Shown here one piece after another: positions 1,691 through 62,318 of a DNA stretch of 64,000 bases (positions are counted from its first letter, which is position 1; each line of letters starts with the position of its first letter). Source of the stretch: Phoronis australis (taxonomy: Eukaryota; Animalia; Phoronida). A program made the translations under genes and the position numbers. A model generated the notes under the pieces. The model did no database searches. It saw nothing but the letters and a program-made list of their open reading frames with translations, and was not told the DNA's origin. The stretch covers positions 62,001-126,000 of the forward strand of contig NMRA01000378.1 of the NCBI GenBank assembly GCA_002633005.1. The letters are read 5' to 3'.

Positions 1691-3373
1691 ATACGCCACC
1701 ACCTCAGAGCGGTTTTAGGAAGTCATTAGGTCACAGTTGGCTAACAATAACATCAAACATGTATATATTTGTCGAGTTTAGGGCTACCAGTACCTGTGTA
1801 GTCTATAACAGTTTTACCTTTATTTACAGTTACAAAGCGGTCATTCTAGTTTTTTATCTATAGTTTGTCGATGATTCATGATGCATGGACTGTTTTAAAA
1901 GTGCCCTGTGGTTGGCTGCTGTGTTCATACATGTATCTTCAGTTAGGTAATAATTGGTCTCGCGTGAGAGTTGATATTTCATGCTATTGGTAATGTCGCT
2001 GTTCCTTTAACTCATTGTATGCGAGGTTCGCTAGCCAGTTCGGGGATGATTCGACTCGGCAAGTTCTATAGGAATTCTCCATGCTCGCGACACCGAAATG
2101 TATGTCTATGGCATAGGAGTGTTTGGCTGGAGGAGATCCAACTAGGGGGTCTGAACCCCCCCTCGCTCATGCCTGCCGGGGCTAATCTGTATCCGGTAAC
2201 TGACTTCGTGTCAGGGACGAGCAGCTGAAAAACTAGGACACCTACCATTTAGAAAAAATTCACTTCAGTGGTCATTGAAGAAAAACGTGTCAATTGATCC
2301 ACAGGTCTGCACATGTATTTAAGTTAGAGAGCCAGCAGATTCCTCATTTAACGTCGACACAATTTAAATGCGCCATTTGGCCCAAATTAAGCAACCCAAG
2401 TGCGTCTATGATAATTTTTATGATGCTTAACTCGACCCTAAATTATGCTACACGTAGCACTTGGAAAGAACTTCCACAAAAAATTAGTTTTATAGGATTT
2501 GTGTTAGAAACATTCACGCTTTTAAATTTAAAGGGGTTATTTTCATAAACTCTCAGTTGGCCCAAGGCCCTAGGCGGAATTAAGGGGTGGAGGGCAAGGA
2601 GCATAACCTACTCCTACGGACACACCCAAAATTATAAAATGCAAAAAAAGAAAAAAAATACACCAGTATATGCATTTTTAGGCGTTACGCACCCATCTGT
2701 ACATAAGAAAATGTTTGGCTCCTGTCCTGTGAATGCTCTGCCTTTTTCCTTTGAAAATTGTGGGTGCCCACTCCAGCAATGTTCTAAATCAGCCACTGAA
2801 CACACCCTTTCTGAGATAATTCTGCAATAATAGCAAAGTTTCGGAAAGAAACTGGCCATGGAAAAACCCATAGTGAATAGCGTTTCCCTTTATGAGTGTG
2901 CTGGGTGCCCGCTTTCTGAACTCATGATCGTGGGTTCGAGTCCCAATGGGCGACACTGCCAGACCCTTGAGTTTAGGTGCTTAATTCTCTGCTCTTTTTC
3001 CGCTACACAGATGTCGATGATGTTTTTAAAAAATTCTAACCTTCCAGTTGCGCCTTGCTCATCGTGGAGAGTGACAGTTTTTCAAGATTGGGCCAACTTT
3101 GCAGTAGAAAACTTAGAACGATAACATATTGTACCGGTTCGATGTCCAAGGTTTCAAAGAAAAATAATGAATGTCCAATGAATTTTATACAATCTTGTAT
3201 TAAAAGATTAAAATCGAGTTCAGGTAACATAGAATACGAGGCTGGGGGACAAAAAAAATTGTTCTTCTGTATACTGAGAGAACCTTGGTTTAAGTATGCA
3301 GTTTTTTAAACAGTCAAGTAGTCTACATGAAATTGGTCTCTGAAACTCTCTGTTGTACACTTCACGCGTGCCG

Positions 3374-4674
3374 TCAACCACATTGATCCGATGACGCTCT
3401 AACCGCCGCTGTGCACTCTAGCCCAACGTCAAAAAATGCCAGAGCAATGTCTTTCTCAGAATATCGCTGAGATTTTGCCGCGTCCAACACGCCACAGACA
3501 GCCTTTGCCATCCCCGTACATCTCTTCCACGACATGACATTAGCCAGCCAAAACACTACATATGCTCTCTTAACACCCCAACCCTCTCTAGTAGCCAATT
3601 TGTAAAAGGCTCTGTTGAAAATTCCAGAGGTGTAGTGGATATCTATGGAATCTGAATAATCCCGGAAATGGGATTTCGATTTGCCGTCGATTCCTGGCGT
3701 GTCGAAATAACGCAATGCATCCAAAGCGCCACCTTTCTTTATCGACCGAGCGACTTTCCAGTCAACTTTACCGTTTAAGTAAAATTCCAATGCTTCACCC
3801 GAGATATCTGCGAAAGATTCTGAAATTGCACCAGATTGTAACCGGTTTTGTAAGCGGGAAGTTTCCAGTATAAATGCGTGTGCCATTTCGTGACCAACGA
3901 CATTTTCATCAGTCATGGGATGGAAAACTGTGTGGCCGTCCCCCAGGAAAACAGACTTTGAAGGAGGGTCGTACCGTGCAATGTCAAGCTTGTCGCCAAA
4001 ATGAACTCTGATGGTTATTGGAGGGCTCAGCACAACTCCTCTTTCAAACCACGCTTGGAACATTTCAAACATTTTTGTCCCGTGGTAATGGGCGTCGTTG
4101 ATTGGCGACCTGCCACCATTTATTGCGTCCGTATTGCCTGTAGCGCACGTATACGTGTGCGGCAAGGTGTTGCTCGTCTCCGACGTGAACTTGTTGTGGA
4201 CGAGGACTACTTTTGAATTCGACATGACGCACTGTAACGCTCGGCCCTCTGACACGTCTAGAAAACCTTTCTTCTGTCCAAAATAATACTCCCCAATCTT
4301 GTCATTTCCCCCTATCCCCATTGCGTTCAGTCTCAAATCACCTTCTCTCCACAAGCCAAAGACAGCAATGGTCACTGCGTCGACCCAAACGGTATACAAG
4401 AAATTATCAACAATCACCTTGCGTTCCCTAATAACCCCAGAAATTTGAATTTCGTAATATTGCCGAACAACCGAATCATTGCGCACATCTATCGATAAGT
4501 TGAAGTCATTCACTCTCCTCACACAAGGTCGCCGTAGTCCAGTCATCAGCAGTTTTACCACAGCATATTTAGCTGCCCTTTTGGCCATGTAGCGCGGTGG
4601 TAATTCAGATTTTGGCCTGAGATGCTGAAGGCCTACGAACAAGGTGCCGTACACGTTGTCTGTTAAAATTTGTC
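3374..4674 (-). CDS. M4 protease copy 1 terminal exon (PepSY-like region plus catalytic domain)
   Basis: Acceptor tatgtttcag|GACAAATT; open frame to TGA at 3374; HExxH plus downstream Glu. The paralogues diverge upstream of this acceptor. Confidence 0.92.
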
Positions 4675-7600
4675 CTGAAACATAAATGTTCATATGTATC
4701 TTAAAAATTTTGCAGATCCTCTGTTTCTTTATGTACCGAATTGGAACACATTTCAAACTGAAGGGTAGAAGTAAAGCTCGAGAATTTGAGTTCAGATTCG
4801 AAATGATAGCTTTAATTGGGGTCAAACAGAGCAAACTAGAGTTAGAAAGTCGTCCGCTGATTCACACCAACCATAATACAGCCATCATGGATTATGTTTG
4901 AATTGAAGCAGAACACAAATAACTAAAAACCATTCGACCGAGCACAGACTAGACACCCAGGCCTTATACACGATTTGCTACTGTGGGAATAAATCTACAC
5001 AAAAATGATGCTCTATAGTCACCGCAGTAACCGTTCTGCACATTTCAAACTAATATTATTACTTTGAAACTGTATGGCTCAGCAAACCTGTCTGACACTC
5101 GGACAACAGAGGTGTGCATGTATGTCTCACCAAACAGGACCTTACAGGAACTGTGAAACTATGAATCTCAACAAACATGACCTTATTTTTACAGTGAAAC
5201 AAACGAGGCTTTACTTGGACAATACAACCGTAGGACTCAGCAAACAGAACTTTAGTTGGACAGTGAAGCTGTCGTCTCAACAAACAGGACTTTACTTGGA
5301 GAGTGAAACTGCCCAGTAAACATGACAGCATTGGCCCAGTACTGGATATCTGTTGCTTGATAGCGCTTGTACCGTATACCGATTTACGTTTCTGGGCCAC
5401 TAATGGCCCAGTACCGTCCAACGACACTAACCCAGTGAACCCTTCCCTTACCGGGTCGCCGGTATTGGCCCCATATCGCTTGGCCGGTAAACACAGACTT
5501 GAACACAAGAGGGTAGTTTGACGCTTATCCACAGGGGGGCCAGGCTTACTATTTTTAACGCTAAAAACTTTTAAGTTTTCTTTAAAAAATCACCATCAGA
5601 TGTGTGACAATAAAACTTTTCAATTTTCATAAAAATTAATTACCAGCAGCTGTATTACAGTGTAATTTTATTTTTTAAAGAAAACTTTCCACCAGAAGAC
5701 CCTCATGAAAAAACCGCCATTTGAAATTTCCCTTGAAGAGCACTTGCCTTGTTTAGCGATTTTCTACAGTTTGAAACCAGCGTTCGTAACAGAATAGTGA
5801 AGGATTTTCACAGTGAACTTCAGATAAGTTTCATATTTGTTCACTTTGCATGCAGTGTCTGTAGAAGTAATACAAAACATGATTTATACCACAGACATTC
5901 TCAGCTTCTGATCGTCTCCAATACGAATGTCTCAACAGACATCTCGCTAAAATAAGACTTTAATTAGACAGTGAAACTGCATGTGCCAACAAACGTCGCT
6001 TTGGAAATGAGACCTTACTTGGACAGTGAAACTGTATCTCGTAATCCTCACACCTCTTCCCTTTTTTCTGGTCCTTATTCAGACAAACAATGCCGTCCAC
6101 CGGACTACATTTTATGGCCAGTAGATTTGGAGGAATCCCGGTGTCAGCGGTGAATTTGCTATACTTCTTTCCCTTAACACGGCACACAGCGTAATCCGGC
6201 GTACCTCCATTACACACATTCATTCCACGTCGCTGAAATGATGCAGTGGTTGCATACATGTAAAATCTGAATGCTAGTTACGGCTGAATGAGTGCATGTT
6301 ATAGTGAACTGGAGAAATTGGAGCCCCACATGTAATTATAGTCATTTAATATAATCGCCACGTTTCAGATTTAAATTGATAGTCATCAGTCTCATGAATT
6401 AAGCGAACTTCATTACTCCTTGTTTTCGAATAACGCTGTTCAGAAAAATGATCGCCATCACCGGAGTTTCAGCGCTATTCTGCGAGAGAAGTACTCTCAG
6501 GTATTTTGAATGGAGTTTCCCTTGACTGCCTAAAAGGCTTGCTCAAGACGGTGCGTTCTTTGTGAGGAGGCCATTGATACTTCTGCGAGAAACTATTTTC
6601 GTTTAGGCAATGAGCAGTCAAGAGTAGAAATGATTCCGAAACAGAATACACACTTCAGCCAAGATTGTCCGTCAAACGAAATTGACGTACATGTAAGTAT
6701 GCAATTATCTTATTTTCTCAACAGGAAGCATAGTCCTGTGTATTTATTGTGGCCAAGTCTCACACCTTGGTACAAAAAATGCACTATCTGTGGAAAGCAA
6801 TCAGAAGCAGCTTACTCGCATATCTTTTATTCTTTCACAGTCTCCGATTCCGTCTGGTGTATCTATACTAGTGAAAGTGGTCCAGTAGCCTATACAGGAA
6901 GCAAATCAAGTTATAATTTATATTCGCCATATGTCTCGAGTAAAATACTTGTGTCACAAGCTCGTTTCCATTGCTGAAAAGGGTACCGAGGTTGGCCAAA
7001 TCAAGTAATTTGTTTTTACAGACTAAAAATTCAAAGAATATTGGTTGAAAATAAGGTACAATAAGTAAAAAATATTAATTTCTGGCCACACAAGGAAAAA
7101 ACGCAACACAGACGTAGATTCGAGATGGTGACAAAAGTGATGGGAGTTAGTGGATGGGTAAGAATAAAATATTTAGACAGGTATGTCGGTGTATCTGACA
7201 CAAGGCAATAGAACTGAAGCAACAAACAAAAGAAATTTCTTTAGTCACGTGTCAGTCATCAGCCTGAAGAATAAACGACGTATCCGAATTGAGGAAAGGG
7301 TATACAAGAGAAAGGAGTCCCAGTATGTTGAAAAGTGGAAATGCTAGTTGTTGCACTTTCACTGCGCATTGAAGCGCGTAAATGTAATCCTCTGTGGTAT
7401 CAAATTGTTGAATGGTCGTTTACGAAAACGAAAATACATTTTCAAATACACCTGATCAGGTGAAATACTTACAAATTATTTTCATTTTAATTATCTTATT
7501 TCTGTACGCACAACAAATAACGAGTTTAAATGCTGACATGTACGTTTTATTTACCAATTGGCCGTCGTAATTTAATCTAGGGTTAGTAAACTAAATTGTC

Positions 7601-8543
7601 AAAACAACTTTGACGTTTCACAGTTTCGCGCCGGGTACGGCTCTCTGGTTATATGCAGGTATTTACTCAACAATTTACTCATGCAGGTACCTTTTCGTAT
7701 TGGCACGAATATTGAAGCGTCCTCCACTCTCGTGTCTAGGTAGTATTGGTGAGCTCGGCACCACGTCTGATTATTCAGGACTATGTCCTCGCTAAGCTTC
7801 ACTGTGTTGTTCAGTCCAAGGTCGAAATAGTCGTTAGGGTCGGGCGACACGACATTCTTCTTGATGAGTGAAGCCGCGCTGCGACTGTAAGCGGGATAGC
7901 GGTACTTCCAACCCCTCGCACGTAACCCACCTGCAAAAAGGCCACTAAATGGAGCGTGTTTTCGTTTGACCGTATACACTGTAGGGACAACTTTAGTTTG
8001 TTCAAAAAGCAAAAAAATGCACCCGTAAATCTGGCAAGCGATGTAACTTCACTCTGCGTGTTAAACTTAACTGCATAACAGGCAACCAGTACATAAATGG
8101 GACCAAACAGGTGCTAACTGTTTTAAGTTTCTTTATTTTTTTAAGACGTGTATAGTACTTGTATACGTTCAAATTCGAATGGACGCACGCTCTAACAGTC
8201 TCGTTAAGTAAACGCTCTTTCGCGGTGCACCCACCAATGCATCATCAGCATTACAAACTAAGAACGATAGAATTTGATACAAAACAGACTAGTGAAATAA
8301 GTTGTCTTTTTGCCCAGACTTCTATGCTCTTTATCAAACGTCCAATCACAGCAGTGAATACAAGCAAGAGCGAACGGAACACACGAGTTCACTGAACTAT
8401 GCCCAAGAAAGGTAGCCGTTGCTACACCACGCCAAGCTCTGGTACAACTGCAACTCATTGTACACGTAAACATTTTTTTTCTTTGCAAACATCTTCGCAT
8501 ACTTACACGTTAACAAAATGTATATGCAGAGTGCTCGCGCCAT
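3374..8543 (-). CDS. Secreted M4 (thermolysin/vibriolysin/LasB-like) zinc metalloprotease, copy 1. Exons 8507-8543, 7691-7930, [6816-6889, 6019-6232], 3374-4674; 525 aa, or 621 aa with the WxxW cassette
   Basis: All junctions are GT-AG and in frame. Signal peptide MARALCIYILLTCGLRARG; FTP motif CRAHQYYLDTRVEDASIFV; mature start GIGGNDKIGEYYFG; SPINDAHY; HEMAH; GAISESFAD; ALRYF; IHYTSGIFNRAFYKLA; WGVKRAYVVFWLAN. Copy 2 has identical exon sizes. Confidence 0.85.
5059..6040. repeat. Degenerate ~40-bp minisatellite matching the WxxW exon donor junction, interrupted by a ~600-bp insertion (~5310-5923)
   Basis: Repeated variants of caaacaggac-(c/t)ttacttggacagtgaaactg-ctcaa at 5059-5310 and 5925-6040. 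The same array occurs at 20660-20940 and 21680-21760. Confidence 0.6.
6019..6232 (-). CDS. WxxW (Mucin2_WxxW-like) domain, C-terminal exon, copy 1
   Basis: catttcag|CGA...CCAA|gtaagg; encodes VCNGGTPDYAVCRV...KCSPVDGIVCLNKDQKKGKRCEDYEIQFHCP, the six-Cys WxxW pattern. Confidence 0.8.
6816..6889 (-). CDS. WxxW domain, N-terminal exon, copy 1
   Basis: gtatag|GC TAC TGG...ATG CGA|gtaagc; encodes GYWTTFTSIDTPDGIGDCERIKDMR (WTxW/F...D.P...GD.E motif). Not visible as an ORF in the supplied track. Confidence 0.75.
7691..7930 (-). CDS. M4 protease copy 1, FTP propeptide exon
   Basis: tttgcag|GTGGG...CGAAAAG|gtacct; 240 nt, phase 1-1; contains RAHQYYLDTRV, matching the FTP RxxQxYxGxxV motif. Confidence 0.8.
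8507..8543 (-). CDS. M4 protease copy 1, first coding exon (signal peptide)
   Basis: ATG GCG CGA GCA CTC TGC ATA TAC ATT TTG TTA ACG T|gtaagt; conserved in copy 2. Confidence 0.75.
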
Positions 8544-10020
8544 CGACAGTCGATTTGAGACAAAATACTTGTCCAGATTATTGCTTATGTATGTCCCTTC
8601 ACCCTGGTAACTGCAGACATCAATTTTAATTCATTGCCACACATTTGCGTCAGACGTGTAATAACTTCTGCTTAAAATAGGTAAAGAGCGGGAGACTGTC
8701 GTCCACAAGCGTCGCATAGACTACGATGAACACTCTGATCTTTGTTTACGATGTGAAATAGTCAAGTAGATCGCATTGGTCGTCAGTGTAGCAATGTGCT
8801 CCTGTTACTGAAAATAAGTAGGCCAGTAAACGTTTTTCAATGGCAATTGAACACACGCGGTGTGTCATGACGCATATTTATCTTGAACATTGATGCGGCG
8901 GTGCGTTGTTTAGCTTTCTATATTTGCAATACAAAAGAGTAACCAGATGCAGGCTGAATTGGGTTGGAACTCCTTTTTTTAACCGTAGCAAGGTACCAAC
9001 AATATGCCCTTGAATTTATCTGTACCTTGATAACTACTGACTCGCTGTAATAAAAACATATAGGAAGGACACTAAAAATCAGTATGCTCAGGATTTTGTA
9101 CTGAAATATGCATGGAACTCTACGGAATCATTTTCGAACAAATCTTTAGATAACTTATTTACCCCTAATCTAGACTCTGGGATGCCGGGTCCCCGACAAA
9201 GTTGATCAGGCTTCGGCCACCTGTTGTCTCGCTGTAACCATAGCCACGACGACGCTTGTTCAGCTGATCTCATCACTGTCTGAACCAAATTCTTGACACT
9301 TTCCTGATACCTAGGAACTTCATCAACCTCCACATATGCTGCTCCCGATGCCCTTTACATCGTACTTCCAACCAGTACTGAACAATCATGGGAAAGATTC
9401 GCATACTTTAGCGTTTTCCTCTCGTTGGAATTATATATAAACAAAAAAGAGCGCTCAACAAAGGAACAGCGTTATCAGAAAATCTCAAATAACTCGAAAA
9501 GTAGACGTCCTAGCGTAAAATGGAAACCATCTTCTGAAAGCCCGATCAAAATTCTATATAAACTGATGGTATCGCTTAATTCCGTAAATTTTTCGAAAAA
9601 AATGAAATTTTGCGTTTTTTTTAAGAAATTCCAAGTCAAATAACTCGAAAACGGTAAGTCTGAGAAAAAAATTGTTACAGGCCATTTGAAAGATTATACT
9701 TCAAAGAATCTACATGCAAAAAATCACGTCTTTTTCTCTTCCCGTTTAAAATTGCACTCCAGACAAATGAAAATGGGTCAGCATGCGCCATATCCGCCAT
9801 CTTGAAAGCAACTTCCGGTTTTCGCTCGTTACTCCAGAGATCAAGGAGACCGAGGTAGACGATGTAAAGTCATCTAATATGACTAATACAATTACAAGTA
9901 ATAGATATTGAATAAACATAAATAAATAAAAAATGATCTCTGGTAAGATGGGCAATAAAAAGCGCCACAAGAGATTTTGTAAGACAGCTCATGCGTATCT
10001 TGATTTATCTGTCGCAGGGC

Positions 10021-11155
10021 AATATCTCACTTGCAAGTTTCTCGTTAGTCAATGTGACGTCACCGGAAAAGGGGTAAAACTCGCCATATTGCTCTTGTTT
10101 GGCCCCGAGTCTTTGCTACACACACTAAATTTTACTGGAGTTCTTATAGTGAATTTTACGCTTAAAACGTTAACACAACTTAAAGGATGGTAGGTGGATC
10201 GTGGAATAACTGTGAATGGACGAAGAAAATGTGAACTTGATATGTTGAGCGAAGCTGTGAACGGGCTGAAATTGGAACTCAACCTGGTCTAGGCCTGAAT
10301 GCCGCAGGCACACAGGGGCGATAGTTTATCCCCATAAAAAGTTACTCACTTCAAAATACAGCAAATAAAATCAAATGAAATATGCATATGCGCACATGGA
10401 GTTATAATTAATTAAAACATACCCTGACTCTGGTTACAATTTAGTCTACAAATAACTTGAACCTATCCATGAAAACCTCGCGGTTCGCTCAAGTTTCTCT
10501 TACAGGGCCCCATTTTGAGGAAGTTACGTGAAATCACGAACAATAAGTCCAAGGAACACAAATCTTACAAATTCACTTGATATGTTCTCATGTTATTTTG
10601 CAAGTGTCACGCGCCAGGTCTCGCGCTTCACCCAGTCTCGCGCTAGCCTTTGCCTCATACTCACCTGACCAGTTGAACTACTTTGTGGTTATCGCGCGCG
10701 CGGTTTAAGTTAACAGTAACCACAATGTGGAGTTGGAATTCTTCGCCAAAGTCACCTGAATTCCCGTAGCTATGCTTCATCGAAGATATGTTTAGAAGCA
10801 GAGAGGACCAATGGAGGAAGTAAGCGCCTTTTTAGGTGACAATTTTAATAGATGTAAATGTATTCTTGACGTGGTGAAAACTTAATCAGTGAGCGGATTT
10901 CGCCTATCGCCCGTTTAAAATACACGAAACGAAATTAGTACAAAACGCGATAGAACGTATTGTAGTGCGAATCTGAATTTCATTTGCCATAACAGCAATG
11001 CTTGTTTGTCATTTTTCGAACTATAAACGGCCAAAAAGTGGAAAAAATAACAGAATACACTCTGCTAACGTATTGGGCAAATGAGCCAAACGACAAGCTT
11101 TTGCCCCACTTCCCGTGACGTCACAGTTATTGTTATAAACTCGCAAAGGACTATT
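10021..11155. mobile_element. Non-autonomous DNA transposon with degenerate ~60-bp terminal inverted repeats
   Basis: The left end aata...ttgcaagttt...tgtgacgtcaccggaaaaggggtaaaa is the inverse of the right end ttttgccccacttcccgtgacgtcaca...aaactcgcaaa...tatt. The paralogous site near 26520-26530 is empty. Confidence 0.55.
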
Positions 11156-12240
11156 TAGAATCACTAGCTGTCCACGTGCAACTGCAGCACAGCTAAAGCT
11201 TTGGCCGGGACCTCCTCCGCTGCACACTAGGTGGCGCAAATACTCGTAGGATAAGAAAACTCGACGCTGTTCGTCAAACTTTAGAAACTCGGCCCTTTTT
11301 ACGGCACATTGTAATTTATTAACAGATTTATATAAATGTTGTCGCCAAGAAGCCCGTTTTCTCAGGGAGCTTGTTCAAAAGTTCTTATATTGTGATTAAT
11401 TACCATATAATAATTTAGCGATGGCTTCACGGTAATGAACCAATAAATACACAAAACGTGCTGAGAGTGGCGTAGATGAAGTAACATCCCAAGAGACATT
11501 ATTCTTCATCGCAGTGAGACATGGTTATTTCAAGAGGTTTACCCTTTTCCGTAAGCCGTTAGTGGGCCCAATATCCCAATATTGGTGAAAATGTGCCTGC
11601 ATTACAATATCAGGAAAGATGTTAAAGACATGGACGGCGCAGCACTGAAATAAGTGGGGTTCTATAGTCCCCAGCCCGCTATGTTGCGCAGCACTGATGT
11701 AAGTGGGAAGTTACAGTCTTCCAGCCCCCTATGGTGAGGGGCCCATGATAGAGGCCTAGAACGCGAACATCAAACTACAATTCATAGCATTATTGAAAGT
11801 GGGTCTCCACCAGTGAAAAAAGGAGTGAGCCCGTTCACCAGGTAGTTTTATGGTTTGTTCGTCAAAATGAATTTCTGTTGATGTCAAAGTATATTTCTCC
11901 TAGTTTTAAATTTCAAAAACTACGTATACACGTATGTCAACCGCTCGTCACTGCATCCATTTTTCTCGCATAAAGTGAAGCCCGTCTCCTTATTTGGTAT
12001 GGCAAGACATACATGTAGTCACGACACATTTTCCTTGACCGGCATTAACGTATAATGTAAACAAAACAAGAGCGATCTGAAGCACACGCCAGTCCGATTA
12101 AAAAGCAATTCACGGAAGTTCTAACTGAAGGTATCGCAGTATTCAAATATATTATCAAATGCATTAGGAATTCTTTTTGGGAAATCGCTTACTTCACTTT
12201 TTGCCTCATACTGTTCTGTCGATTATATATTGTCCGAAGA

Positions 12241-12385
12241 AGGATTTGAACCTCCGACTTCTGAAACTAAACATATTTTGAATCCAGCACCTTAACTACA
12301 ACTCTAAAAAATCACACCATGATGAGTGTACCACATATCCATGCCCGCAGGAACACCTGGCGATGGCCGGAGAATAGACAGACCG
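12241..12385. mobile_element. Rearranged copy of the tRNA-derived SINE (head inverted relative to body)
   Basis: 12241-12300 is the reverse complement of the head at ~1525-1583, whereas 12306-12385 matches the body at ~1595-1680 on the + strand. Confidence 0.6.
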
Positions 12386-13054
12386 AAACGTCGTGACTGT
12401 GGAAGTAGTCAAGAGGTCGGTGTGATAGTGGCATGATATACAAAGAATTTTCCGCTAAGGGAGACTCCGACAAGCTCCCATTTTCGATTGGATTCAACAT
12501 GTCTCTGCACTCATCAGAGGTCATTTTCGTTATTTTTGCATCTGCCTCCCTATCCTACAAAGTGTGTTCCTATTGAGATGGTCACGACTGGCCTAGGTTT
12601 TCTGATGGGCCACGCCTCTATACTAGCTTCCCGAGTGCCTTTTTTGCCTGTGCCGCAAGATCTACCAACTTCTTTACATTTTTAAGATTTGGTGTATGCG
12701 CTCCAACTGAGGAGAGCATGCTCAGAATTAAATTCGGGACATGTCTGACTACTGTGGCATCCTCTGGTGGCATTTTATGGTTTTCATGTGGTTCTACACC
12801 TACCAGCTTTATTCAAGCATGAAATTTGGTAATTAGATGTCACAGAAACGGCAGCGAAAGCCTTGCTGTGCCCGCTAGTGTTATTTTTATTTTATAATTA
12901 TTGGGGACAAATAAAACAACAAGAATAATAAATATTTTAAGTTGTATTGGGAATTTCAGGGTCACAGCTCTACAAATAAATATTTCACAGAAGGAACCAG
13001 ACGTGTTCCTTAATTACAAGAGATAACACACACATTTCCAATACCCAAAGTGTA

Positions 13055-13255
13055 ATTGAGTATCGGATACTAAGTGGTACAGGTTAGCATAGTACCAAAT
13101 GGGTACATAATACTAAATGGGTATTGGCCGATTGCTTACCGAGGGTCGAGCAAAGCGGCAAATTCAATAACGATGTACCAAGTGGGTACAAACTGCCAAA
13201 TGGGCAAATATCATATAAAGTACCAAGTGGGTGCACCAAACAGCCAACTGGGCTA
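13055..13255. repeat. Degenerate short repeats of gtaccaa(a/g)tgggtaca
   Basis: About six copies of ccaa(a/g/c)tggg with gtac flanks. Confidence 0.5.
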
Positions 13256-15025
13256 TAACAACCTGCAAAGCAGGTTCCGGACAAGTTGAGTGAGCAGACC
13301 AGCCGGAGTGATAAAGAGATTTTGTAAGGAACGTGGTGCTGTGGCTCAGTATGTGCCACATGGGCAGGGTTGTTCATGGATGAACAATCCTGTCCACCGT
13401 TGAACACCCCAAGTTAAAAACATACCGGTAGTTGTGCAGACACGGGTGCATTTTATGGCTCTGCGTTGCTTTTGCTTTTACATGACAAAAAACTGTAAGG
13501 TGATGTGATGAGATGGTTTCTTTTTTACTTCTTTTGATCACAATTTCGCACATTTGTTACCCCGAGATTCCACTCTGTCAATCACTTTTAAGTTTGTGAA
13601 CTAATTTGTCCTGTTCAAACCTTGACTGATCACAGCCAAAGGCAAAGGCTGCTGGTTACAAAATTCCTATGAAATAATAACTGTACAAACATATCTTTTT
13701 GTGTGTTCCAAGTCTGAGTTTCCATTGATATTAAAAGATAAGACACGTAACTTCACCATGATATTCTTCCTGATACCTCACTCAAAATAATTGAGTTTCT
13801 TGTAGGCTGTCTGAATTCCAGATTTTGAAAAGGTCAATAGCAATGACAGTGCTTTAAGCGTATTTTAATAACTGGTATAAAAGTCATCGACCTTGTTGCA
13901 GTGAATGGCTGGCAGACAAAGGAAGTTCTGTCGATTGGTAATAAAAACAGCAAAAACACAATAGACTTCGTTGAATTATAGCCAAGTCAATCCCCGCTAA
14001 CGTTATCAAATAAGCCGTTTCGGCCGTAAACACCATAATGTCCCCAATGAATAACATTAAGCGTAGATGCATAAACTGTCACTTTAAATCATTGAGGGTC
14101 TCATAATTTGATGTGCTCACACATGATGGCGTTTCTTCACGGGAGTCGCAATATCTTTCACCAGCAAATATAATTTTTGGGACGAAACCTGTAAAAGTTC
14201 AGCTTCTTTATGATTTGAATTCATATAGAAGTCTGGGATATTCTCATGCATGACGTACATGTACATGTCATCGACAAATCTTTGTATTTAGCCAAAAATT
14301 TACCAAGTTGTAGACTTGAAATGAGTAAAACTTTACACATTTCGAAAAGAGGAAGCATGGAAATTTTGGTTTTTTAAATTTATTTCAATCTGTCGTAAAT
14401 TAGGTCACGTGTCTTTATCAAAATGTAACAAAAAGAAAGGAATGTCGTAGCAAAATTGTATTCAGTAACAGGAAGGAATGTCAAAAACCCTGCCAAAGTT
14501 TTTTTATCTCCAAAAGTGGATCACACACGGTTTGGCAAACAACATGCATGTAGACGCAATTTTAGATGCGTCTGAACGAAACTCTTTATACGTGTAGGTA
14601 CTGTTTCTGCAACTACACCAAACTAACGAAAGTAGGCAGCGTATTAGACGTCTTCGGTGTAACTACATGATAGCGACTCCAAGGAGGTCACCACCATGAG
14701 TCGCCAACTAATATCGGGAATGATTATGTGGCAAGTTGACTGTCGTTTGACTGGTTTCATGGCAGTAGGACTCTGCTAAGTGCCTCTGAACTTCTGTCAG
14801 TTTGTACCAGAAACCTGTGAATTAGGTACTTCGTAAGAACATGTACTTTCCCCTAGCAACTACTGTAGGTTCCGCGCCTTCCAGTGGTACTCTACGTTTA
14901 AAATTGAATGCCACCCGATTTACTTAGTTTTTTACCGTTTTAATCGGTATACATGTATATCCACATCACTTCGTATACAGTCGATCTCACCTCGTCGAAA
15001 GATGTCGCGTTAACCTGTAAGGAAG

Positions 15026-15250
15026 GTGAGTACACGAAGCAGCGACGTCAGTGGTTCTTACTGTAAGCCATGTGTGTGCGGACATGGTGTGGCGTATTGT
15101 TCCCGCTTGTGTGAACCACTGATGAAGCAGTGTGGAAAGCGGGTATATCGCTTTTTTCGATTTCCTCGAGAACCCGAAATGCTTTGGAAGTGGTTCCCAG
15201 CAGTAAAGAACGAAAAGTTCGCCATTAATACCAAGTATGAGACCGTGAAA
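15026..15250 (+). pseudogene. THAP-domain-like fragment of a DNA transposon
   Basis: Cys-rich start followed by YRFFRFPREPEMLWKWFPAVKNEKF, matching THAP F..FP......W...V. The terminal C..HF is missing. Confidence 0.5.
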
Positions 15251-15279
15251 TACATGTTTCTCCTTATCTATGGCCGGGA

Positions 15280-17470
15280 CTATCCTGTTTCAAAATGAAT
15301 TATTCTCACCTTAACCAATGTTTACATAAAATTGAAACAAAGTGCCAAAGTATGTCTAAGTAGATGCAATTTGTAATGGCATAGGAGTGTTCGTGCTTGC
15401 AAATGTTTTGAGGAATCGACAATCACGGAATAAATCATACTGCGTTATAGGCGTCAGATGTAAATTGACCGACTTGTGGGCGCATGCTAATTATGTGTTT
15501 GCTGACAGAAAGCTGCTGTGCTATGATCAGATGTTAGGGTAATCTTTATTTGGATATACATGTGTGTGTGTGTGTGTATTTATCCCAGGCGCGTTGAATC
15601 TGTCGAGGGAAATACGGACATGTAATAATGTTTTCCGTATTCACCTCCCGCACTACTTCAACAGTGATCTCTGACATTGAAGGTTTAAAAGGTAGGTCAA
15701 TGTCGATTCGACGTCGTTAGCCGGTTAGATCATCAAACTTTCGGCAAGTAGTTTAAATACAATTGTAGCAGTATAAATACCACTCAACATGCAACCAAGT
15801 CTCAATCGTAACATCTGGAACAGGACTGTTAATTATATTACAGTTCTGTCTCAGTTTTCAATTTCTATACAGTACACTGACAAGGCCTATGTATTAGACA
15901 CCGGTGCCCTAAAGTCGTGAATATAAGCTAAAAAGCAGCTGATTGTCATACTACCCAATGTCCTTTAGCAACTGCTCATGCGACGTCATGGACATATATC
16001 AGCCTTCACAAATATACGTGTTTTGCCAATCTTAACCCTTGCAACTCAGGCACTGATTCCTCGACAATATCAAACATTGTTGTCACTGGCCATGACAGCA
16101 CCCCGATACTATCGGCGACAGTATTACACGAGCAACAACGACGACCGCCCCAGCAACACATGAATTTTTCCACGCTACAGAATTCGTATCCAGCCAGCTA
16201 GCTGTATGAACAGACTGTCGTATATTTAGTTTACAGCTTTCTACCAAGGCTACAGAATCCGTAGAAATGCGACAACGTATCTGCAACAACGCATCAACAG
16301 GCATATTCGCCGGAGCTGTCATCAACGACAACAGTGGCACTTTTGATATCTTCGAGAAAAAAATGGACGACGTGTAGGTTACGCGCTCCGGTCAATGACC
16401 TAGTTTCATGAATGAGTGCACTCGATGAGGATTTTTCAATGTTATGAATATTCTTGTTATTTTTTTTCGAAATATGATACAAGTTCAATGCACAATAACT
16501 GTCGTTTTCACACTTTTTATCAATTTTAAGTAATAAACCGTTACATTTAAAGTGTTTTCTTTTACTATAGTAAGTTAGCTTTTAAAAATGTCAAAGGATA
16601 TCAACCATGTTCATAAACTTTAGCCAGAGACTGCTGGTTCGACTTTGCAGAGACAACTCTGATTTTATGTTATTTTTGATTATGGAGAATTGTAGTTGGC
16701 CATGAAAACATAAACATTACAATTAATTTAAGGCGTGAGAACATAACGTTTTAGTATAACCTGCTTGATGACTGACTCGTTCGTTAGGCTTTTGTTTGGT
16801 CCTCCGGGTGAATAGGATGTTTTCTCCACTCAGCCCTAAAAAAAATGTCGTACGCACACCTTCTTTAAACGCGGTTCAAAACCAGGGTGGTTCGCGAGAC
16901 GCATTTGCGCTTCTCCAAGAATTCGTTTCACTTGCAGATTTCGTGGCAGCCAAAGGCAAGTGTCAGTCGTTCCATTATCATGCAGTTAGCTCACTGACAC
17001 CATGACAAGTCATTCGGTTTTCGGTACTATTCATATGTTCCGTCTGGTGCACGTCCACGGAGTCTCTCTATTATTTCTTGATCAGTGTATTCCTTTAAAC
17101 CTAACAATCGACCGGTGAAGTCTTCGTCGAATGAGCACTCACCTAAGTCGGGATTGCGAGTTGCCAGGTTGACGTTGATATTGTGTGTTCAGTCTGTTTC
17201 AAAATTAATTATTGTCACTCTAACCAATGCTTATATCAAACTGTAACAACGTCTGTCTCATTAGATGATTGCCAATGTTTTGAGAAGCCAGCAATGAATA
17301 AATCACTGCGTTACTGGCTTTAGATGCAATAAACCGCCTAATTGACCGGGCACCGAGGACGTGTGAGCGCATGCTAATCCAGTGTTTGCTGACAGAAAGC
17401 TGTTGTGAAACAATAACTCCATTTTGTACCCTATGGTCAGATGTTTGGGGAATCTTTATTTAGATATTCA
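15280..17470 (+). repeat. Diverged ~280-bp direct repeats (15280-15560 and 17190-17470)
   Basis: Shared tttcaaaat.aattatt, taaccaatg, gcgcatgctaat..gtgtttgctgacagaaagctg and aatctttattt.gatat. Confidence 0.65.
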
Positions 17471-18985
17471 TATACATTATTTGAATCATTGTTTCTGTAA
17501 ATTTTTTTGCCCTGTCGGTTCTGTGGAAATGTAACTTGACTTCGCGGACGCCGACGAGCTAGTAAGTATATTTGCAGTTTCGCGGCAAGTTCACCAAAAT
17601 GACCAGTGTGCACATTTTTTCATTGCCCCACTTGTATAGTCTTTTCGTGACTGGAAGCTTAGTTTACAACTTTGGGTGGTTTATGTTCGTGATGTCTTCA
17701 GTCCGGCCGCGATGGGCCTGACCGGGGTCCGAGCCACTGGCCGGGATAACAAGCGTTTTGTGTGTTTAGAACTGAAAAAAATCGTAAGTGTAAATTACAA
17801 CACGCAGCTACCTCGGTATTTTCTCCTGTCTGTATTTTGCAGACTAATAATTTGAATTAATCATCAAACAGACCCCATACTCCCGCGACCGGCCTTGCGA
17901 TAAATTGGCCTTCCGAACTTTGTAGGCTACGGTACCCTACGTTCAAGTACCTAAAAATCCGTCACAGCGAAATAAAACTAACACGTTTAATAACTCGATG
18001 TAATTTTAAGGGTTTTACATCGAACTTTGGTGATTTATTGGTGTAAAACGATGAATTCAGGCGATTAGCTGACACCAGTAAGCGTGTTGTAACCTGCTGA
18101 ACACACTGCATTAGAACCTCTGACGTCATTGGTTAATTTCAACGCCTCCGTCTGCCGTCAGGTGCTAGCCAAAAGAGCTGAACTTGCTGTTGTCGAGTAG
18201 AACTACTCGGTCTAAATTGATACAAAATAGGTTTGTTTTGGGTAGTATTCTCCTTTAACATACTTAACATTACTGCTACTTGTGATTCATTGCCCCAATT
18301 CGGTAAAATCGATGTCGCAAATTTTGTGAAACTGAATTATCGACAGTCAGATACTGTATGAGATCGCATGGGAGCAAACACGGTTCTGGAAAAGAAAATA
18401 TTCTAGTAACGCCTAAAATTGCCTAGATGGCGTCCAGAGAGGTCCTTCTAAAACGATGTTTCGGTGAATGTTAAAGAAAGTTAGGTAATTTATACAAATC
18501 TTCATAACACACTTCCCAATTGCAAAACCTAGATGGGCTGGCCCGTGTGTGTGCACGAAGTGAATGTCTCGAGCTTTGGTGTTTAATTTTCTGCTTTTTC
18601 CGCAATAAATCTCGGTTACGGATTCAGAACCTAGATCAAGTGATATTTTTTAATTTTTTAACCGTCCAGTTGCGCCTTGCTCAGAGACACTTTTTAAAGA
18701 TGTTGGATTTGGGCCAAATTAGCAGTACAAAATTGAAAACGATAACATTGTACGATGTCCAAGGTTTCGAAAGAAAATAACTGATGTTCATTGAATTTTA
18801 TACAATCGTGTATTAATAAAGTCAAATCGGATACGGGTAACATAGAATGCGGGGCTGGGAGACAAAAACTCGTTCATCAGTATGCTGAGTGAACCTTGGT
18901 TTTACGTTTGCAGTTTGTTAAACAGTCAATTAGTCTACATGGAATTCGTCTCTGAAACTCCCTGTTGTACAAATCACACGTAACG

Positions 18986-20286
18986 TCAACCACATTGATC
19001 CGTTGACGCTCTATCTACAGCAGTGCACTCTAGCCCAACGTCAAAAAATGCCAGAGCAACGTCTTTTTCAGAATATCGCTGAGATTTTGCCGCGTCCAAC
19101 ACGCCACAGACAGCCTTTGCCATCCCCGTACATCTCTTCCACGACATGACATTAGCCAGCCAAAACACTACGTATGCTCTCTTAACACCCCACCCCGTTT
19201 TAGTAGCCAATTTGTAAAAGGCTCTGTTAAAAATTCCAGAAGTGTAGTGGATATCTACGGAATCTGAATAATCCCGGAAGTGGGATTTCGATTTGCCGTC
19301 GATTCCTGGCGTGTCGAAATAACGCAATGCATCCAAAACGCCACCTTTCTTTATCGACCGAGCGACTTTCCAGTCAACTTTTCCGTTTAAGTAAAATTCC
19401 AATGCTTCTCCCGAGATATCTGCGAAAGATTCCGAAATTGCACCAGATTGTAACCGATTTTGTAAGCGAGAAGTTTCCAATATAAATGCGTGTGCCATTT
19501 CGTGACCAACGACGTTTTCATCAGTCATAGGATGGAAAACTGTGTGGCCGTCCCCCAGGAAAACAGACTTTGAAGGAGGGTCGTAACGTGCAATGTCAAG
19601 CTTGTCGCCAAAATGAACCCTAATGGTCATTGGGGGGCTCAGCACAACTCCTCTTTCAAACCACGCCTGGAACATTTCAAACATTTTTGTCCCATGGTAA
19701 TGGGCGTCGTTGATTGGTGACCTACCACCATTTATTGCGTCCGTGCTGCCTGTAGCGCACGAATACGTGTGCGGCAAGATGTTGCTCGTCTCCGACGTGA
19801 ACTTGTTGTGGACGAGGACTACTTTCGAATTCGACATGACGCACTGTAACGCTTGGCCCTCTGACACGTCTAGGAAACCTTTGTGCTGCCCAAAATAATA
19901 CTCCCCAATCTTGTCATTGCCCCCTATTCCTATTGCGTTTAATCTCAAACCACTTTCTCTCCACAGGCTAAGGACAGTACTTGTCTCTGCGTCAACCCAA
20001 ACGGTATACAAGAAAGTATCAACAATCACCCTACGTTCCCTAATAATCCCACAAATCTGAATTTCGTAATATTGCCGAACAACCGAGTCATTGCGCACAT
20101 CTATCGATAACTTGAAGTCAGTCACTTTCCTCACATAAGGTCGCCGTAGACCCATCGTCAGCAGATTTACCACAGCATGTTTAGCGGCTTTTTTGGCCTT
20201 GTGACGCGGTGGTAATTCAGATTTTGGCCTGAGATGCTGGATGCCTACGAACAAGGTACCGTACACGTTGTCTGTTAAAATTTGTC
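18986..20286 (-). CDS. M4 protease copy 2 terminal exon (PepSY-like region plus catalytic domain)
   Basis: Acceptor tatgtttcag|GACAAATT, HExxH, stop at 18986. Confidence 0.92.
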
Positions 20287-23200
20287 CTGAAACATAAATG
20301 TTCATATGACTCAAAATAATTTCGCAAAATCCTTTGTTTCTATGTACCAAACTAAAAAAGTATCGTAAGTGTAGATGTAAAGCTCGAAAAGTAGAATTCA
20401 GATTCTAAAAGATAGCTTTAATACTGTGGTCAAAAAAGCACACTAGATTTTAGAAAGTCATCCACTGATCCACACCAACCATAACACACAGAACAAAATT
20501 TTGTATTGAATTAGAACACAAATGACAAAAACTATTCGATAGAGTACACAGATTAGACTTCAGGCTTTACATACGATTTGCTACTGTGCGAATAAATCTA
20601 CACTGAAATGGTGCCCTATAGTCGCTGCAGTAACAGTTCTGCACATTTCAAAATAATATTATTACTTTGAAACTGTATGGCTCAATAAACAGGTCTATAC
20701 TACAATAGAGGTGTATATGTATTTCTCATCAATCAGGACCTTACTGGAACTGTGAAACTATGTAAGTCAACAAATAGGACTGAATTTTTGAAGTGAAACA
20801 AACGGGGTTTTACTTGGACAATACAACCGTACTGTAGGACTCAGCAAACAGAACATTAGTTGGACAGTGCTTGGGAAGCTGTTTGTTACAAACAGGACTT
20901 TACTTGGAGAGTGAAACCGAATGTCTCAACAAACATCTCGCAAGAAATTAAATGTAACTTGTTAAATGCATTTATCGTCATTATTTTGACATTTGTCTCT
21001 TTAGTTTGATACTAACCCTTAGGGTTTATTTTGCATTACTCATCTCTATTTATAGCCTCAAGGGCCTACTTTTGTATTCATACAAGTCTCTACGCGACAC
21101 CTGATTGGTCGCCCATATTTCCTTTGTTCAGTTCAGCCTGGTCTCTCTCATTCAGCCACCTACCTTGTCGTCTACAAGACCTACGTTCGTTCTCTGCGTT
21201 TTTCCCCCACCCCCCATACCGGGTGTCGGTTCCACTTTCTCTTTTCTCCTAAACATTTCCTGTTAGGTTTTTTCAATTTTTGTGTTCATGTTCTGTACTT
21301 TTCCTTTACGCCCTTCAGGCAGTTCTTTTGTTTTGGTTCCCTCTTTCAGGGCTATTCATTGTACACGCCGGTGGGTGTTTTGTCCATGCCCATCTTGCAG
21401 AGTCTTAGTTAGTTTTATCTATTTACGTCATAATAAATGACATTATTCNTGACTCACAATAGAAGCCTGATAAGAGTGAAGGTGGATAAATGCGGTGTTC
21501 CTACAGTTTCTTGTTTTAGTGGATGTGTTCACGACATGTCCATGCCCATCTTGCAGAGTCTTAGTTAGTTTTATCTATTTACGTCATAATAAATAACATT
21601 ATTCGCAATCCTCCTCTGGTTTTACTCTGCAACATAGCTCGTGGCTTACCCCGGGCAAAATAGATTACGATAAATAAGACTTTACTAATTGGGCAGTAAA
21701 ACTGCATGTGCCAACAAACGTTTCTTTAGAAACGAGACCTTACTTGGACAGTGAAACTGTATCTCGTAATCTTCACACCTCTTCCTTTTTTTCTGGTCCT
21801 TATTCAAGCAAACAATGCCATCGACCGGGCTACATTTTATGGCCAGTAGATTTGGAGGAATCCCGGTGTCAGCGGTGAATTCGCAACATTTTTTCCCCTT
21901 AACACGACACACAGCGTAATCTGGCGTACCTCCATTACAAACGTTGATGCCACTTCGCTGAAATGATGCAATTGTTGCATACATGAAGAAACTATAGCAT
22001 TGTTATTTTGCTGGTTCTAACTTGAGGCAAATGAAGTAAAATGTGACTGCTAGTTACAGCTAAATGAGTGCATATTATAGGGAAGAACTTGTAGCCCCCA
22101 GACACAATATATAGTCATTAAATAAAATCGCCACGTTTCAAGATTTCAATTGATTAAATAAAGGCGAACTTCATTTCTATTTGTTAATACATGTAAGTCA
22201 ATTCAGAAAATAATCGAGATCACCGGAACTTTAGCACAGAGAATACTTTTGAAGGATGATTCTCTTGACTGCCTAAAAGGCTCGCACAAGACAGTGGATT
22301 GTACACCATTGATAGTTCTAAGAGAAACTATCTTTGTTTAGGCAATAGTCAGTCAAGAGTAGAAATGATTCCATGACAGAAATGCACTGTCCAACCACGG
22401 TTGTCGTTACGACGCCAAAGCCGGCAAAGTCCGTCAAACGAAATTGACGTAAGTAGGTAGACTGTAACATACAGTGGGTACCTCGAGAGTAACCACTGAG
22501 CTTGTTTTAACCCTCTTGAAGAAAAGTTTGTATTGGTCAGAATAAGAATAGATTTCAACGGAAACGTGTAAACAGGAAATATAACAAGAAACTTTGGAAA
22601 CTGTAGGCCTCTTCTTGCATGGGGTGAATCGTCCGAGTACCGTGATAACAATTATCTAATTTCCTCAACGGGCCAACTCTCTCTGAATGATATAAAAATA
22701 TACTATTTGTGGAAATAAATCGGAGACATCTTACTTGCATATCTGGTATTCTTTCAAAGTCTCCAAATCCATCTGGTGTATCTATACTCGTGAAGTTGGT
22801 CCAGTAGCCTACGTGGGAAGAAAATCAGGTTATAATCCATAGTCAGTCCCGAGTAAAATACCTGCGTCACAACCTCGTTACGAGAGCTGAAAATGCGACC
22901 AAGGTTGTCAAAATAAAGTTCACTTATTATGACAGAACAAAAACACAATAAATGTTTGTGAAACTAAGATAAAATCAGTAAAATATAATAATGTCTGGTA
23001 AGATCAGCAATAAAAAACCCACACAGAGTTACAAGGTTGTGACAAAAGTGACGTGAGGTAGTGGGCAATCGAGTAACACTGAAATGTTTAGACACGTGCG
23101 TCTGTGTAGCTGACACAAGACAATAGAACTGAAACATGTAAAAGCAAACAAAAGACATGTTACAGAATTGAGGAAAAAGGGGGTACAAGGGAAAGGAACT

Positions 23201-24354
23201 CATATGTTCATATCAATCTATTGAAAAAGGGAAATAATATATGTTGCACTTGCGCTGTACATTAATGCACGTACAGGAAATTCTCTGTCGTTCCAAATGG
23301 TTTGATGGTCGCTTACGGAAACGGAAATACATCTTCCAATACACTGATCAGGGAAAATACTTACAAATTATTTTCATTTTAATATCTTATTTCTGTACAT
23401 ACAACAACATTCACCAATTGGTCACCGTAATTTTATGTACCGTTGTCATAACAATTGTGACGTTTCACAATTTCCCAACGTGTACATGTACCTTTTCGCA
23501 TTGACACGAATATTGAAGCGTCCTCCACTCTCGTGTCTAGGTAGTATTGGTGAGCTCGGCACCACGTCTGATTATTCAGGACTATGTCCTCGCTAAGCTT
23601 CACTGTGTTGTTCAGTCCAAGGTCGAAGTAGTCGTTAGGATCGGGCGACACAACATTCTTCTTTATGAGTGACGCCGCACTGCGACTGCGGGCGGGGATA
23701 TGGTATTTCAAGGCCCTCGCAGGCAACCCACCTGCAACATGACCACTAATTTAAATAGAGTGTGTTTTCATTCGACCGTATGCACTGCAGGGACAACTTT
23801 TGCTTGTTCAAAAAGCAAAAATGCGCACGTAAAACTGCCAAGCGATGTAACATCACTCCGCGTGTTCAGCTTAATTGCATAACAGGGAGCCAATACATAA
23901 ATGAAATCAAACAGGTGCTTACTGTTTATTGTTTCTTTATTTTTTGTGTCGAGTACTTGTAAACGTTCAAATTGGGATTGAGATTTACTCATGCTCTAAC
24001 ATTCCTGTTTAGTAAACGCTCTTTTGCGGCAAACCCACCAACGCATCATCAGCACAGCTGAGAACGTTAGGGGTTCAGTGATACAATACATACCAATGAA
24101 CTAAGTTGCTTTGTTACCCCCACTTCTATGCTCTTTATCAAACCTCCATTCACACCAGTGAGTGAATACAAGAACCAGTAAACTGAACACACGAGTTCAC
24201 TGAACTGTTTCTACTTCGGAAAGGTAGCCGTCGATGCTCCACGGCAAGCTCTAGCTGGTGCAACGGCGTCTCATTGTGCACAGTATTTCTTCTTTGCAAA
24301 TATCTTCGCCTACTTACACGTTAACAAAATGTATACGCAGACTGCACGCGCCAT
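18986..24354 (-). CDS. Secreted M4 zinc metalloprotease, copy 2. Exons 24318-24354, 23492-23731, [22735-22808, 21744-21957], 18986-20286
   Basis: Same exon sizes (37/240/74/214/1301 nt), GT-AG sites and motifs as copy 1. Starts MARAVCVYILLTCGLPARA; has HEMAH, GAISESFAD and VHYTSG; no stops. Confidence 0.85.
21744..21957 (-). CDS. WxxW domain, C-terminal exon, copy 2
   Basis: catttcag|CGA AGT GGC...CCAA|gtaagg; six conserved Cys; CEDYEIQFHCP. Confidence 0.8.
22735..22808 (-). CDS. WxxW domain, N-terminal exon, copy 2
   Basis: acgtag|GC TAC TGG...ATG CAA|gtaaga; encodes GYWTNFTSIDTPDGFGDFERIPDMQ. Confidence 0.75.
23492..23731 (-). CDS. M4 protease copy 2, FTP propeptide exon
   Basis: gttgcag|GTGGG...CGAAAAG|gtacat; 240 nt. 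Confidence 0.8.
24318..24354 (-). CDS. M4 protease copy 2, first coding exon (signal peptide)
   Basis: MARAVCVYILLT followed by T|gtaagt. Confidence 0.75.
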
Positions 24355-38280: not shown

Positions 38281-38686
38281 ATTCAAAAAAGGGTGAGGTT
38301 TTATCTTGCTGACTATACAAAAGAGTGTGTATAATCTTAATTTCACAGCAACAAACACCCTCCGAAATAACTGAATACTCTGTACGACTGTAGGATGGCA
38401 GTCAGAGGCACTGCTGAATGGCACTGCTGAATGCCACCACTACAAGCGATGTCAGTCATAATAAAACTATTGCTAGACTGGTTATTGTTTGTGTGTTTAG
38501 GACCATTGACTCTATTTTTATGCTCCTAACTTCTGTGTGTAGTGACAAGTGTGCCAGTGTATTATACATTACAATGACAATGTCATAAATAGCAGTATTT
38601 CAGCATATATCCTTATCTGACCCAATTCAACCTTCACGGTAATCACGGGAGCTTACATAACATACATGAACATGTTAACATACGAG

Positions 38687-56619: not shown

Positions 56620-62318
<5,699 letters not shown>

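Follow-up and report, generated by a model that had tools for sequence, protein, structure and literature searches.

A LasB-type M4 protease gene with a CysD-family domain in its propeptide, present as two tandem copies in Phoronis australis

How does a secreted protease of bacterial type come to lie, divided by introns, in the genome of an animal? The question is raised by a stretch of 64,000 nucleotides (nt) from Phoronis australis (contig NMRA01000378.1, positions 62,001 to 126,000), here called the window, which holds two neighbouring genes, A and B. A preliminary description, made from the letters alone, took them for intact, spliced genes of the vibriolysin/LasB type in peptidase family M4, acquired horizontally, domesticated and then duplicated. 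The analysis reported here supports much of this, and it points to a chimeric gene in which a domain of the mucin CysD family stands inside the bacterial-type propeptide.

Both genes lie on the minus strand. Gene A runs from an ATG at 8543 to a stop at 3374, and gene B from an ATG at 24354 to a stop at 18986, with no internal stop in either. Each consists of five coding exons separated by GT-AG introns in phases 1, 1, 0, and 1, and the spliced product is 621 amino acids (aa) long. When gene B is aligned to gene A, its exons prove equal in length, again with GT-AG ends. The catalytic region occupies a single last exon of equal length in the two genes, as had been described.

Evidence for splicing is provided by RNA from four runs (X1-X4) in two studies, with reads mapped to gene A at 88% likeness. 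The three raw-read runs belong to one study, and about a fifth of each was sampled. In X2, X3, and X4, junction reads number 40, 6, and 7 for intron 2; 33, 5, and 10 for intron 3; and 23, 3, and 8 for intron 4. Intron 1 is crossed by 3, 0, and 3 reads, plus 12, 0, and 1 with one variant base. A single X1 contig spans exons 1-4 and crosses the last joint, into exon 5. In the exon bins the first mates fall on one strand only, which fits a stranded library and a transcript from the minus strand, and several intron bins are without reads. A joint from exon 2 directly to exon 5, skipping exons 3 and 4, does not occur among the junctions listed in X1-X4 (threshold 3 reads). The expectation of spliced transcripts was thus correct, and contamination, which would have undone the earlier claims, is excluded by the stranded, spliced reads. 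A three-exon model of 525 aa, in frame and built from the sequence alone, is ruled out by the RNA joints, which give five exons.

Expression of gene B was read from B-type bases in the reads mapped to gene A. Thirteen exonic read variants were checked (from 40 of 188): eight equal the gene B base, and five, all in exon 2, match neither copy. B-type bases are found in 40/49 and 35/43 reads in X2, and in 1/10 and 2/11 in X3 and X4. Since the 33 joint reads of intron 3 in X2 exceed the roughly 8 A-type reads, B-type transcripts share the same joints. Gene B or some further copy could be their source.

In both genes, intron 4 contains decayed repeats of about 40 bp that resemble exon 4 at its end, together with the donor site (5139-5313, 5957-5981, and 20738-20921). 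There are five in gene A and two in gene B (up to 6 mismatches in 25), and no listed joint uses them.

The nature of the enzyme can be read from exon 5. It matches Peptidase_M4 / M4_C (PF01447 / PF02868) at 55.5/89.3 and 53.5/90.6 bits in the two genes, above the Pfam cut-offs. Two of the motifs noted before, G.GGN.KIG.Y and SP.NDAHY, are present, but the third departs from its pattern at two residues, with I in place of V and T in place of S. The closest solved relatives are LasB (232 bits), PlM4P, MCP-02, and ProA, compared with 58 bits for thermolysin; scores for the LasB group range from 232 to 173 bits, against 84 to 41 for thermolysin-type enzymes. The protein is not a ProA equivalog (210 against a cut-off of 900). 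For exon 5, a structure model based on 77 sequences gives a mean predicted local distance difference test (pLDDT) of 89 and template modelling (TM) scores of 0.95-0.97 on target to MCP-02 and LasB. Its best fold match is the vibriolysin MCP-02 (TM 0.96 on target), and fold-search E values are 1e-31 to 1e-28 for LasB-type enzymes versus 1e-18 or weaker for thermolysin-type enzymes.

Residues H450, E451, H454, E474, D478, R510, D533, and H535 correspond to LasB H140, E141, H144, E164, D168, R198, D221, and H223. The HExxH motif, the third zinc ligand (a Glu 20 residues on), the catalytic His, and the Asp168-Arg198 pair are kept in both copies; the roles of the zinc ligands and of the catalytic Glu and His are presumed to be those of LasB. 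Mutants of LasB at Asp168 or Arg198 are inactive (PMC4376888). Sequence and model together identify genes A and B as predicted vibriolysin/LasB-type M4 zinc proteases with an intact zinc site.

The earlier list of domains missed what exons 3 and 4 encode. These exons total 288 nt, are bounded by phase-1 introns at both ends, and specify an insert of 96 residues. Exon 4 alone exceeds the cut-off of PF13330 (Mucin2_WxxW, 22.4 bits) in both genes. The motif that gives the family its name appears as W-x-x-F, the second Trp being replaced by Phe, and neither gene has the WxxW motif with ten cysteines found in MUC2. By its sequence the insert is therefore a domain of the Pfam family rather than a MUC2-type CysD. 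In the Atlas comparison its first match is the same family (0.92), with recognition below the Atlas threshold, and a single-sequence structure model of exon 4 reaches a pLDDT of 45, too low for use.

No similar domain was found in the 317 collected M4 relatives, the best matches of 4697 (best E 1.1). None of 16 relatives scanned with Pfam has a WxxW domain. When the exon-4 domain was sought in longer proteins, five candidates came up, none significant, which is weak evidence. CysD domains occur in Bilateria (PMC4948705). A metazoan origin of the insert is suggested by this distribution and by the Pfam assignment rather than by a tree. The CysD domain and the calmodulin gene with its introns point to a bilaterian host. 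In two further papers, CysD domains are described as forming non-covalent dimers (PMC3195396) and as binding mucin VWD/C8 modules and calcium (PMC7599080).

Where the domain was inserted can be seen from the propeptide. The FTP and PepSY-like regions described before give no Pfam match in the separate exons, but a profile made from the M4 propeptides of 253 collected relatives detects them. With the CysD part left out, the exons score 35.7 bits (B) and 24.0 bits (A), against 6.2 for the best of 200 shuffles. Exon 2 alone has no match among solved structures. The two flanks of the insert join at profile position 88/89 with nothing lost. Because they are colinear there without exons 3-4, a phase-1-bounded module of 96 aa appears to have been inserted into the FTP region, and the alignment suggests a turn between strands as the site. 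The idea that introns were gained in the N-terminal part therefore holds for intron 1, whereas introns 2-4 flank and split the inserted animal domain. On this evidence from sequence, the gene is a chimera formed by exon shuffling.

The cleavage site of LasB aligns to R303/L304, with Leu at the predicted P1' position in both copies. M4 enzymes prefer hydrophobic residues at P1'. The propeptide of vibriolysin acts as chaperone and inhibitor and is removed autocatalytically (PMC3831164). At the other end of the protein, exon 1 is predicted to encode a signal peptide, with a hydropathy peak of 2.6 in residues 1-15.

The tandem duplication that had been proposed is borne out by self-comparison of the window (table) and by a synonymous divergence (dS) of 0.21. 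The two proteins are identical at 562 of 621 positions. Since both carry the CysD insert, the insertion preceded the duplication. The ratio of nonsynonymous to synonymous divergence (dN/dS), calculated from this one sequence pair, is 0.22 overall, 0.14 in the catalytic part, 0.14 in CysD, and 0.46 in the PepSY-like part, values that indicate purifying selection on the protease and CysD parts.

Two tracts are identical between the copies, one of 123 nt in exon 2 (7704-7826 in gene A) and one of 104 nt (3456-3559). An equally long tract as the first occurs in 21 of 2000 codon shuffles, and three of its positions show, in many X2 reads, bases found in neither copy. Possible explanations are a third copy and, within the haplotype that was assembled, gene conversion.

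The origin of the protease was addressed with a homologue search of 1.84 billion representative proteins. It gave 4697 relatives overall, and the best 150 matches are 33-45% identical. Among 30 relatives that were looked up are Vibrio, Shewanella, Zooshikella, and Rhodanobacteraceae as well as the animals Lingula anatina and Haliotis asinina; the earlier guess that related genes are annotated in other marine invertebrates was right. A word search of proteins of 237-756 aa gave five relatives, none close. None of 112 pattern matches in metagenome contigs is a relative. A scan of GTDB with one of the collected proteins, P0151, gave one locus that matches its repeat region only, with no clue to a donor.

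From a set of 58 rows, a tree was made of 33, without gene B and 24 others (308 columns, LG+C20). In it P0032 and P0151, which carry TSP3 repeats of bacterial type, form the sister group of gene A (support 95/90). A quick tree of all 58 rows gives this group an SH-aLRT value of 80. Lingula and Haliotis fall apart from gene A and from each other. Two constrained arrangements are not rejected by the approximately unbiased (AU) test: one clade of the window gene with two named animal and nine eukaryote-like rows (p-AU 0.353), and the window gene outside all other LasB-type rows (p-AU 0.249). The eukaryote-like rows were labelled by tree position and motifs and may include protists. Because the LasB subgroup is far closer than other bacterial M4 enzymes and the eukaryotic spread is patchy, a bacterial origin of the protease gene is well supported and likely. 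Of the earlier proposal of a domesticated horizontal acquisition, the bacterial type, splicing, expression, and purifying selection stand, but nesting within Proteobacteria is not established by these tests.

Thirteen of the collected rows are LasB-type M4 proteins that group with, or look like, those of Lingula and Haliotis: P0121, P0218, P0281, P0292, P0302, P0124, P0135, P0138, P0192, P0114, P0062, P0031, and P0190. Several have PPC domains. They are probably candidates for undescribed eukaryotic families.

A model that would join these observations can be proposed tentatively. A bacterial gene for a pre-pro-protease would first enter the germ line. Next, exon shuffling would place a CysD module of two exons, with a phase-1 intron at each end, in an FTP loop, the flanks on both sides staying colinear, and the finished chimeric unit would then duplicate. 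The protein would be secreted, with the propeptide aiding folding and inhibiting the enzyme as in vibriolysin. Before cleavage, CysD would bind mucin, and mucus would thus serve as the store or the vehicle of the enzyme. Self-cleavage at R303/L304 would free a protease of 318 aa from the CysD-bearing propeptide. CysD would act before release because it departs with the propeptide. The freed enzyme may act on proteins trapped in mucus, such as food, microbes, or the mucus itself, and a changed substrate range is suggested because Asn112 and Tyr155 (LasB numbering) are replaced. By analogy, the simplest role of CysD is to hold the inactive zymogen in mucus, which is somewhat more probable than that it does not. 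A bolder reading, less probable than not, is that marine animals domesticated vibriolysin-type proteases, with which their bacterial neighbours cut mucus and tissue, several times independently. In this lineage, shuffling of a mucin cross-linking domain into the inhibitory propeptide would then have made the enzyme a zymogen of the mucus gel, set free on activation and with a new substrate range.

Several observations weigh against the mucus-zymogen model. Mucus feeding by the host is an assumption, and activity and localisation are predictions. The predicted signal peptide is short and judged by hydropathy alone. CysD lacks its second Trp and has seven cysteines in gene A and eight in gene B, six of them common to both, whereas MUC2 CysD has five disulfides (PMC3195396). 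The match of the insert to the MUC5AC CysD is weak (E 0.019), with a conserved C-terminal cysteine pattern. The tree points to no particular bacterial donor, and one or several transfers would both fit. Finally, the branch of gene A is long (1.64; median 0.47), and residues near the active site that are almost fixed elsewhere have changed. Asn112 of LasB is Ile420 and Tyr114 is Arg, neither seen in any of 257 other relatives; Tyr155 is Asn465 (2 of 257) and Trp115 is Tyr (4 of 257). We take Asn112, Tyr155, and their neighbours to serve in substrate binding and transition-state stabilisation. Asn112 and Tyr155 are usual in M4 enzymes but do not define the family. With such replacements the enzyme may have little activity and may fail to cleave itself. 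The branch length and the replaced residues would also suit a gene of the same origin whose product is a weak or dead enzyme, staying whole as a mucus-bound binding or decoy protein. This is unlikely, as no zinc ligand is lost, the catalytic Glu is kept together with His223 and the pair Asp168-Arg198, the catalytic part shows the low dN/dS given above, and both copies retain Leu at the predicted P1'. A similarly low probability attaches to the idea that a plain secreted digestive protease merely tolerates CysD, as a passenger in one loop of a propeptide that is discarded. The removal of the propeptide in vibriolysin (PMC3831164) fits this, and unrelated Thr-rich inserts near the boundary of propeptide and mature enzyme in the Lingula and Haliotis relatives indicate that inserts are tolerated. 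Yet the dN/dS of CysD equals that of the catalytic part and lies below that of the PepSY-like part, its six shared cysteines are kept in both copies, and exons 3-4 are included in all listed joints.

The number of transfers is a separate matter. One old M4 transfer may have been common to Lingula, Haliotis, and others and then inherited vertically with many losses, leaving CysD alone particular to this lineage. Named animal relatives do exist, Lingula at 44% identity over 247 residues is as close as the best matches overall, and a joint animal and eukaryote-like clade passes the AU test. This alternative is doubtful all the same. Without constraint, the tree scatters those rows over three or more groups, and none of 200 bootstrap trees (0%) joins Lingula with Haliotis. 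The His of NDAH, present in both window proteins and in 242 of 257 other rows, is lacking in three named animal rows, and the motif H-[HY]-G-x-K is common to the window proteins and only four other rows. The eukaryote-like rows, moreover, were picked partly by the NDAH and motif feature. It is far less probable again that A and B are alleles assembled side by side, or that the locus is bacterial contamination. The gap in the assembly, and stretches that are nearly duplicated in other parts of the window, might raise the suspicion, but the dS of 0.21 speaks against it, the introns are 74-84% identical and of different lengths, and similarity ends at the edges of the 6-kb units with no N run between the copies. 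Both read types also occur in each of X2, X3, and X4, and GT-AG joints to an animal domain are impossible from a contaminant.

Positions of the features discussed (window coordinates; a dot marks features given without strand)
Feature	Position	Strand	Content and evidence
Gene A exon 1, coding part, 37 nt	8507..8543	-	ATG and short hydrophobic stretch; intron 1 junction reads
Gene A exon 2, 240 nt	7691..7930	-	N-terminal propeptide (FTP-like), aa 13-93; profile 9.6 bits alone, positions ~40-88
Gene A exon 3, 74 nt	6816..6889	-	CysD/WxxW start (W-x-x-F); joints 6888-7690 and 6232-6816 in X1-X4
Gene A exon 4, 214 nt	6019..6232	-	CysD/WxxW remainder; PF13330 35.8 bits; joint 4673-6018
Gene A exon 5, 1301 nt	3374..4674	-	FTP remainder, PepSY-like region, M4 catalytic domain, stop
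Sites in gene A exon 5	near 4330; 3892-3878		Predicted self-cleavage site R303/L304; HExxH
Gene B exon 1, 37 nt	24318..24354	-	B-type base at matching place in 10/14 X2 reads
Gene B exon 2, 240 nt	23492..23731	-	FTP-like; propeptide profile 11.5 bits alone
Gene B exon 3, 74 nt	22735..22808	-	CysD start; placed by aligning it with gene A; phase unchanged, GT-AG ends
Gene B exon 4, 214 nt	21744..21957	-	CysD remainder; PF13330 32.0 bits; B-type bases in 29/35 and 35/43 X2 reads
Gene B exon 5, 1301 nt	18986..20286	-	PepSY-like region and M4 catalytic domain
Duplicated unit, copy A, ~6.1 kb with flanks and introns	3018..9160	.	Self-BLAST to 18641-24975, 73-87% identity, three blocks
Duplicated unit, copy B, ~6.3 kb	18641..24975	.	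Intron identities 74-84% over aligned bases

The rest of the window (GC 39.8%, 553 N) gives the genes their setting. Calmodulin exons lie near 62.3, 59.9, 59.3, and 56.6 kb, the nearest (56619-56649) at 32.3 kb from gene B. The distance of about 32 kb reported before is thus right, but a run of 550 N at 49055-49604 intervenes, so that the linkage is at scaffold level only. GC at third codon positions is 0.49-0.50 in the M4 genes versus 0.46 in calmodulin. Support for the animal transposons said to surround the genes is weak: a THAP-like fragment lies between A and B at 15014-15295 on the plus strand (19.3 bits against a Pfam cut-off of 23.9) and dispersed repeats of no named family are present, but a scan of 150 other open frames in the window gave no transposon family.

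Further features of the window may be mentioned. The flanks of the N run match 34778-36533 (91%) and 37556-38283 (96%), as a repeat copy or a haplotype duplicate. The calmodulin gene, on the minus strand, has two candidate terminal exons, 59358-59328 and 56649-56619, each preceded by an AG acceptor and encoding near-identical last nine residues (Thr versus Lys at the fourth) and a stop; they are possibly alternative terminal exons. A 451-bp tandem repeat at 60261-61234 lies inside a calmodulin intron, and a 301-bp tandem repeat is found at 54475-55055. Near and within gene A, many loose-ended reads, some on both strands, fall on 5312-5419, 5768-5825, 5890-5924, and 2904-2972, which are dispersed repeats transcribed elsewhere.

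A full-text literature search found no title or abstract on an animal M4 protease or an M4-CysD fusion; subscription papers lie outside its coverage, and supplements on horizontal gene transfer (HGT) may list some. Protease terms are absent from the main text of PMC13350694, which treats eleven amphioxus transfers, and the words 'peptidase' and 'protease' from that of PMC4729200. Animal LasB-type M4 genes, through automatic annotation, and the class of HGT-chimeras are already known; the M4-CysD chimera appears to be new. The locus is less unique as an animal M4 gene than the preliminary description held, and more unusual as a chimera. It offers an exon-by-exon view of a bacterial secreted protease rebuilt in an animal, with introns, an inserted animal domain, and then duplication. 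Beyond this locus, marine invertebrates seem to hold a larger set of LasB-type proteases that apparently has not been described. The finding also bears on the function of CysD outside mucins and on the number of times animals took these enzymes. Among the questions it raises are whether CysD targets the zymogen to mucus, and what the substrates of an M4 site without Asn112 and Tyr155 may be.

Compared with known systems, the gene resembles several and matches none throughout. LasB and MCP-02 belong to MEROPS family M4. LasB (pseudolysin of Pseudomonas aeruginosa; PDB 1ezm, 8cr3) and MCP-02 (PDB 3nqx) share with the window protease the pre-pro layout with an FTP/PepSY-like propeptide, the catalytic fold at 36-38% identity, and the zinc and catalytic residues; like LasB, the window protease has no C-terminal PPC domain. 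Unlike LasB, its genes have four spliceosomal introns and a CysD of 96 aa within the propeptide, and LasB Asn112, Tyr114, Trp115, and Tyr155 are Ile, Arg, Tyr, and Asn.

The animal proteins of Lingula anatina (XP_013384835.1, XP_013378819.1) and Haliotis asinina (XP_067678922.1, XP_067678923.1) are LasB-type M4 enzymes of the same subgroup. They are annotated as 'hemagglutinin/proteinase-like' or 'neutral protease-like', with two near-copies per species, and their identity to the window protease is 44% over 247 aa (Lingula) and 38% over 303 aa (Haliotis). They have no WxxW domain, keep Asn112 and Tyr155, lack the NDAH His, and are not the sister of the window gene. Mucin CysD domains (PF13330; MUC2 CysD1, MUC5AC PDB 8ov0) are about 100 aa long and have a C-terminal cysteine pattern like that of the insert. 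In contrast to them, the insert has Phe as its second Trp and fewer cysteines, and it stands in a protease propeptide rather than between PTS repeats.

The HGT-chimeras of arthropods come from a screen of arthropods only, and the main text of PMC13389597 is without 'peptidase', 'protease', and 'mucin'. As described there, they combine non-metazoan and metazoan intervals in one frame and one mRNA under purifying selection, and the window genes do likewise. Unlike those chimeras, the window genes appear to hold the animal module inside a bacterial domain, on exons of its own.

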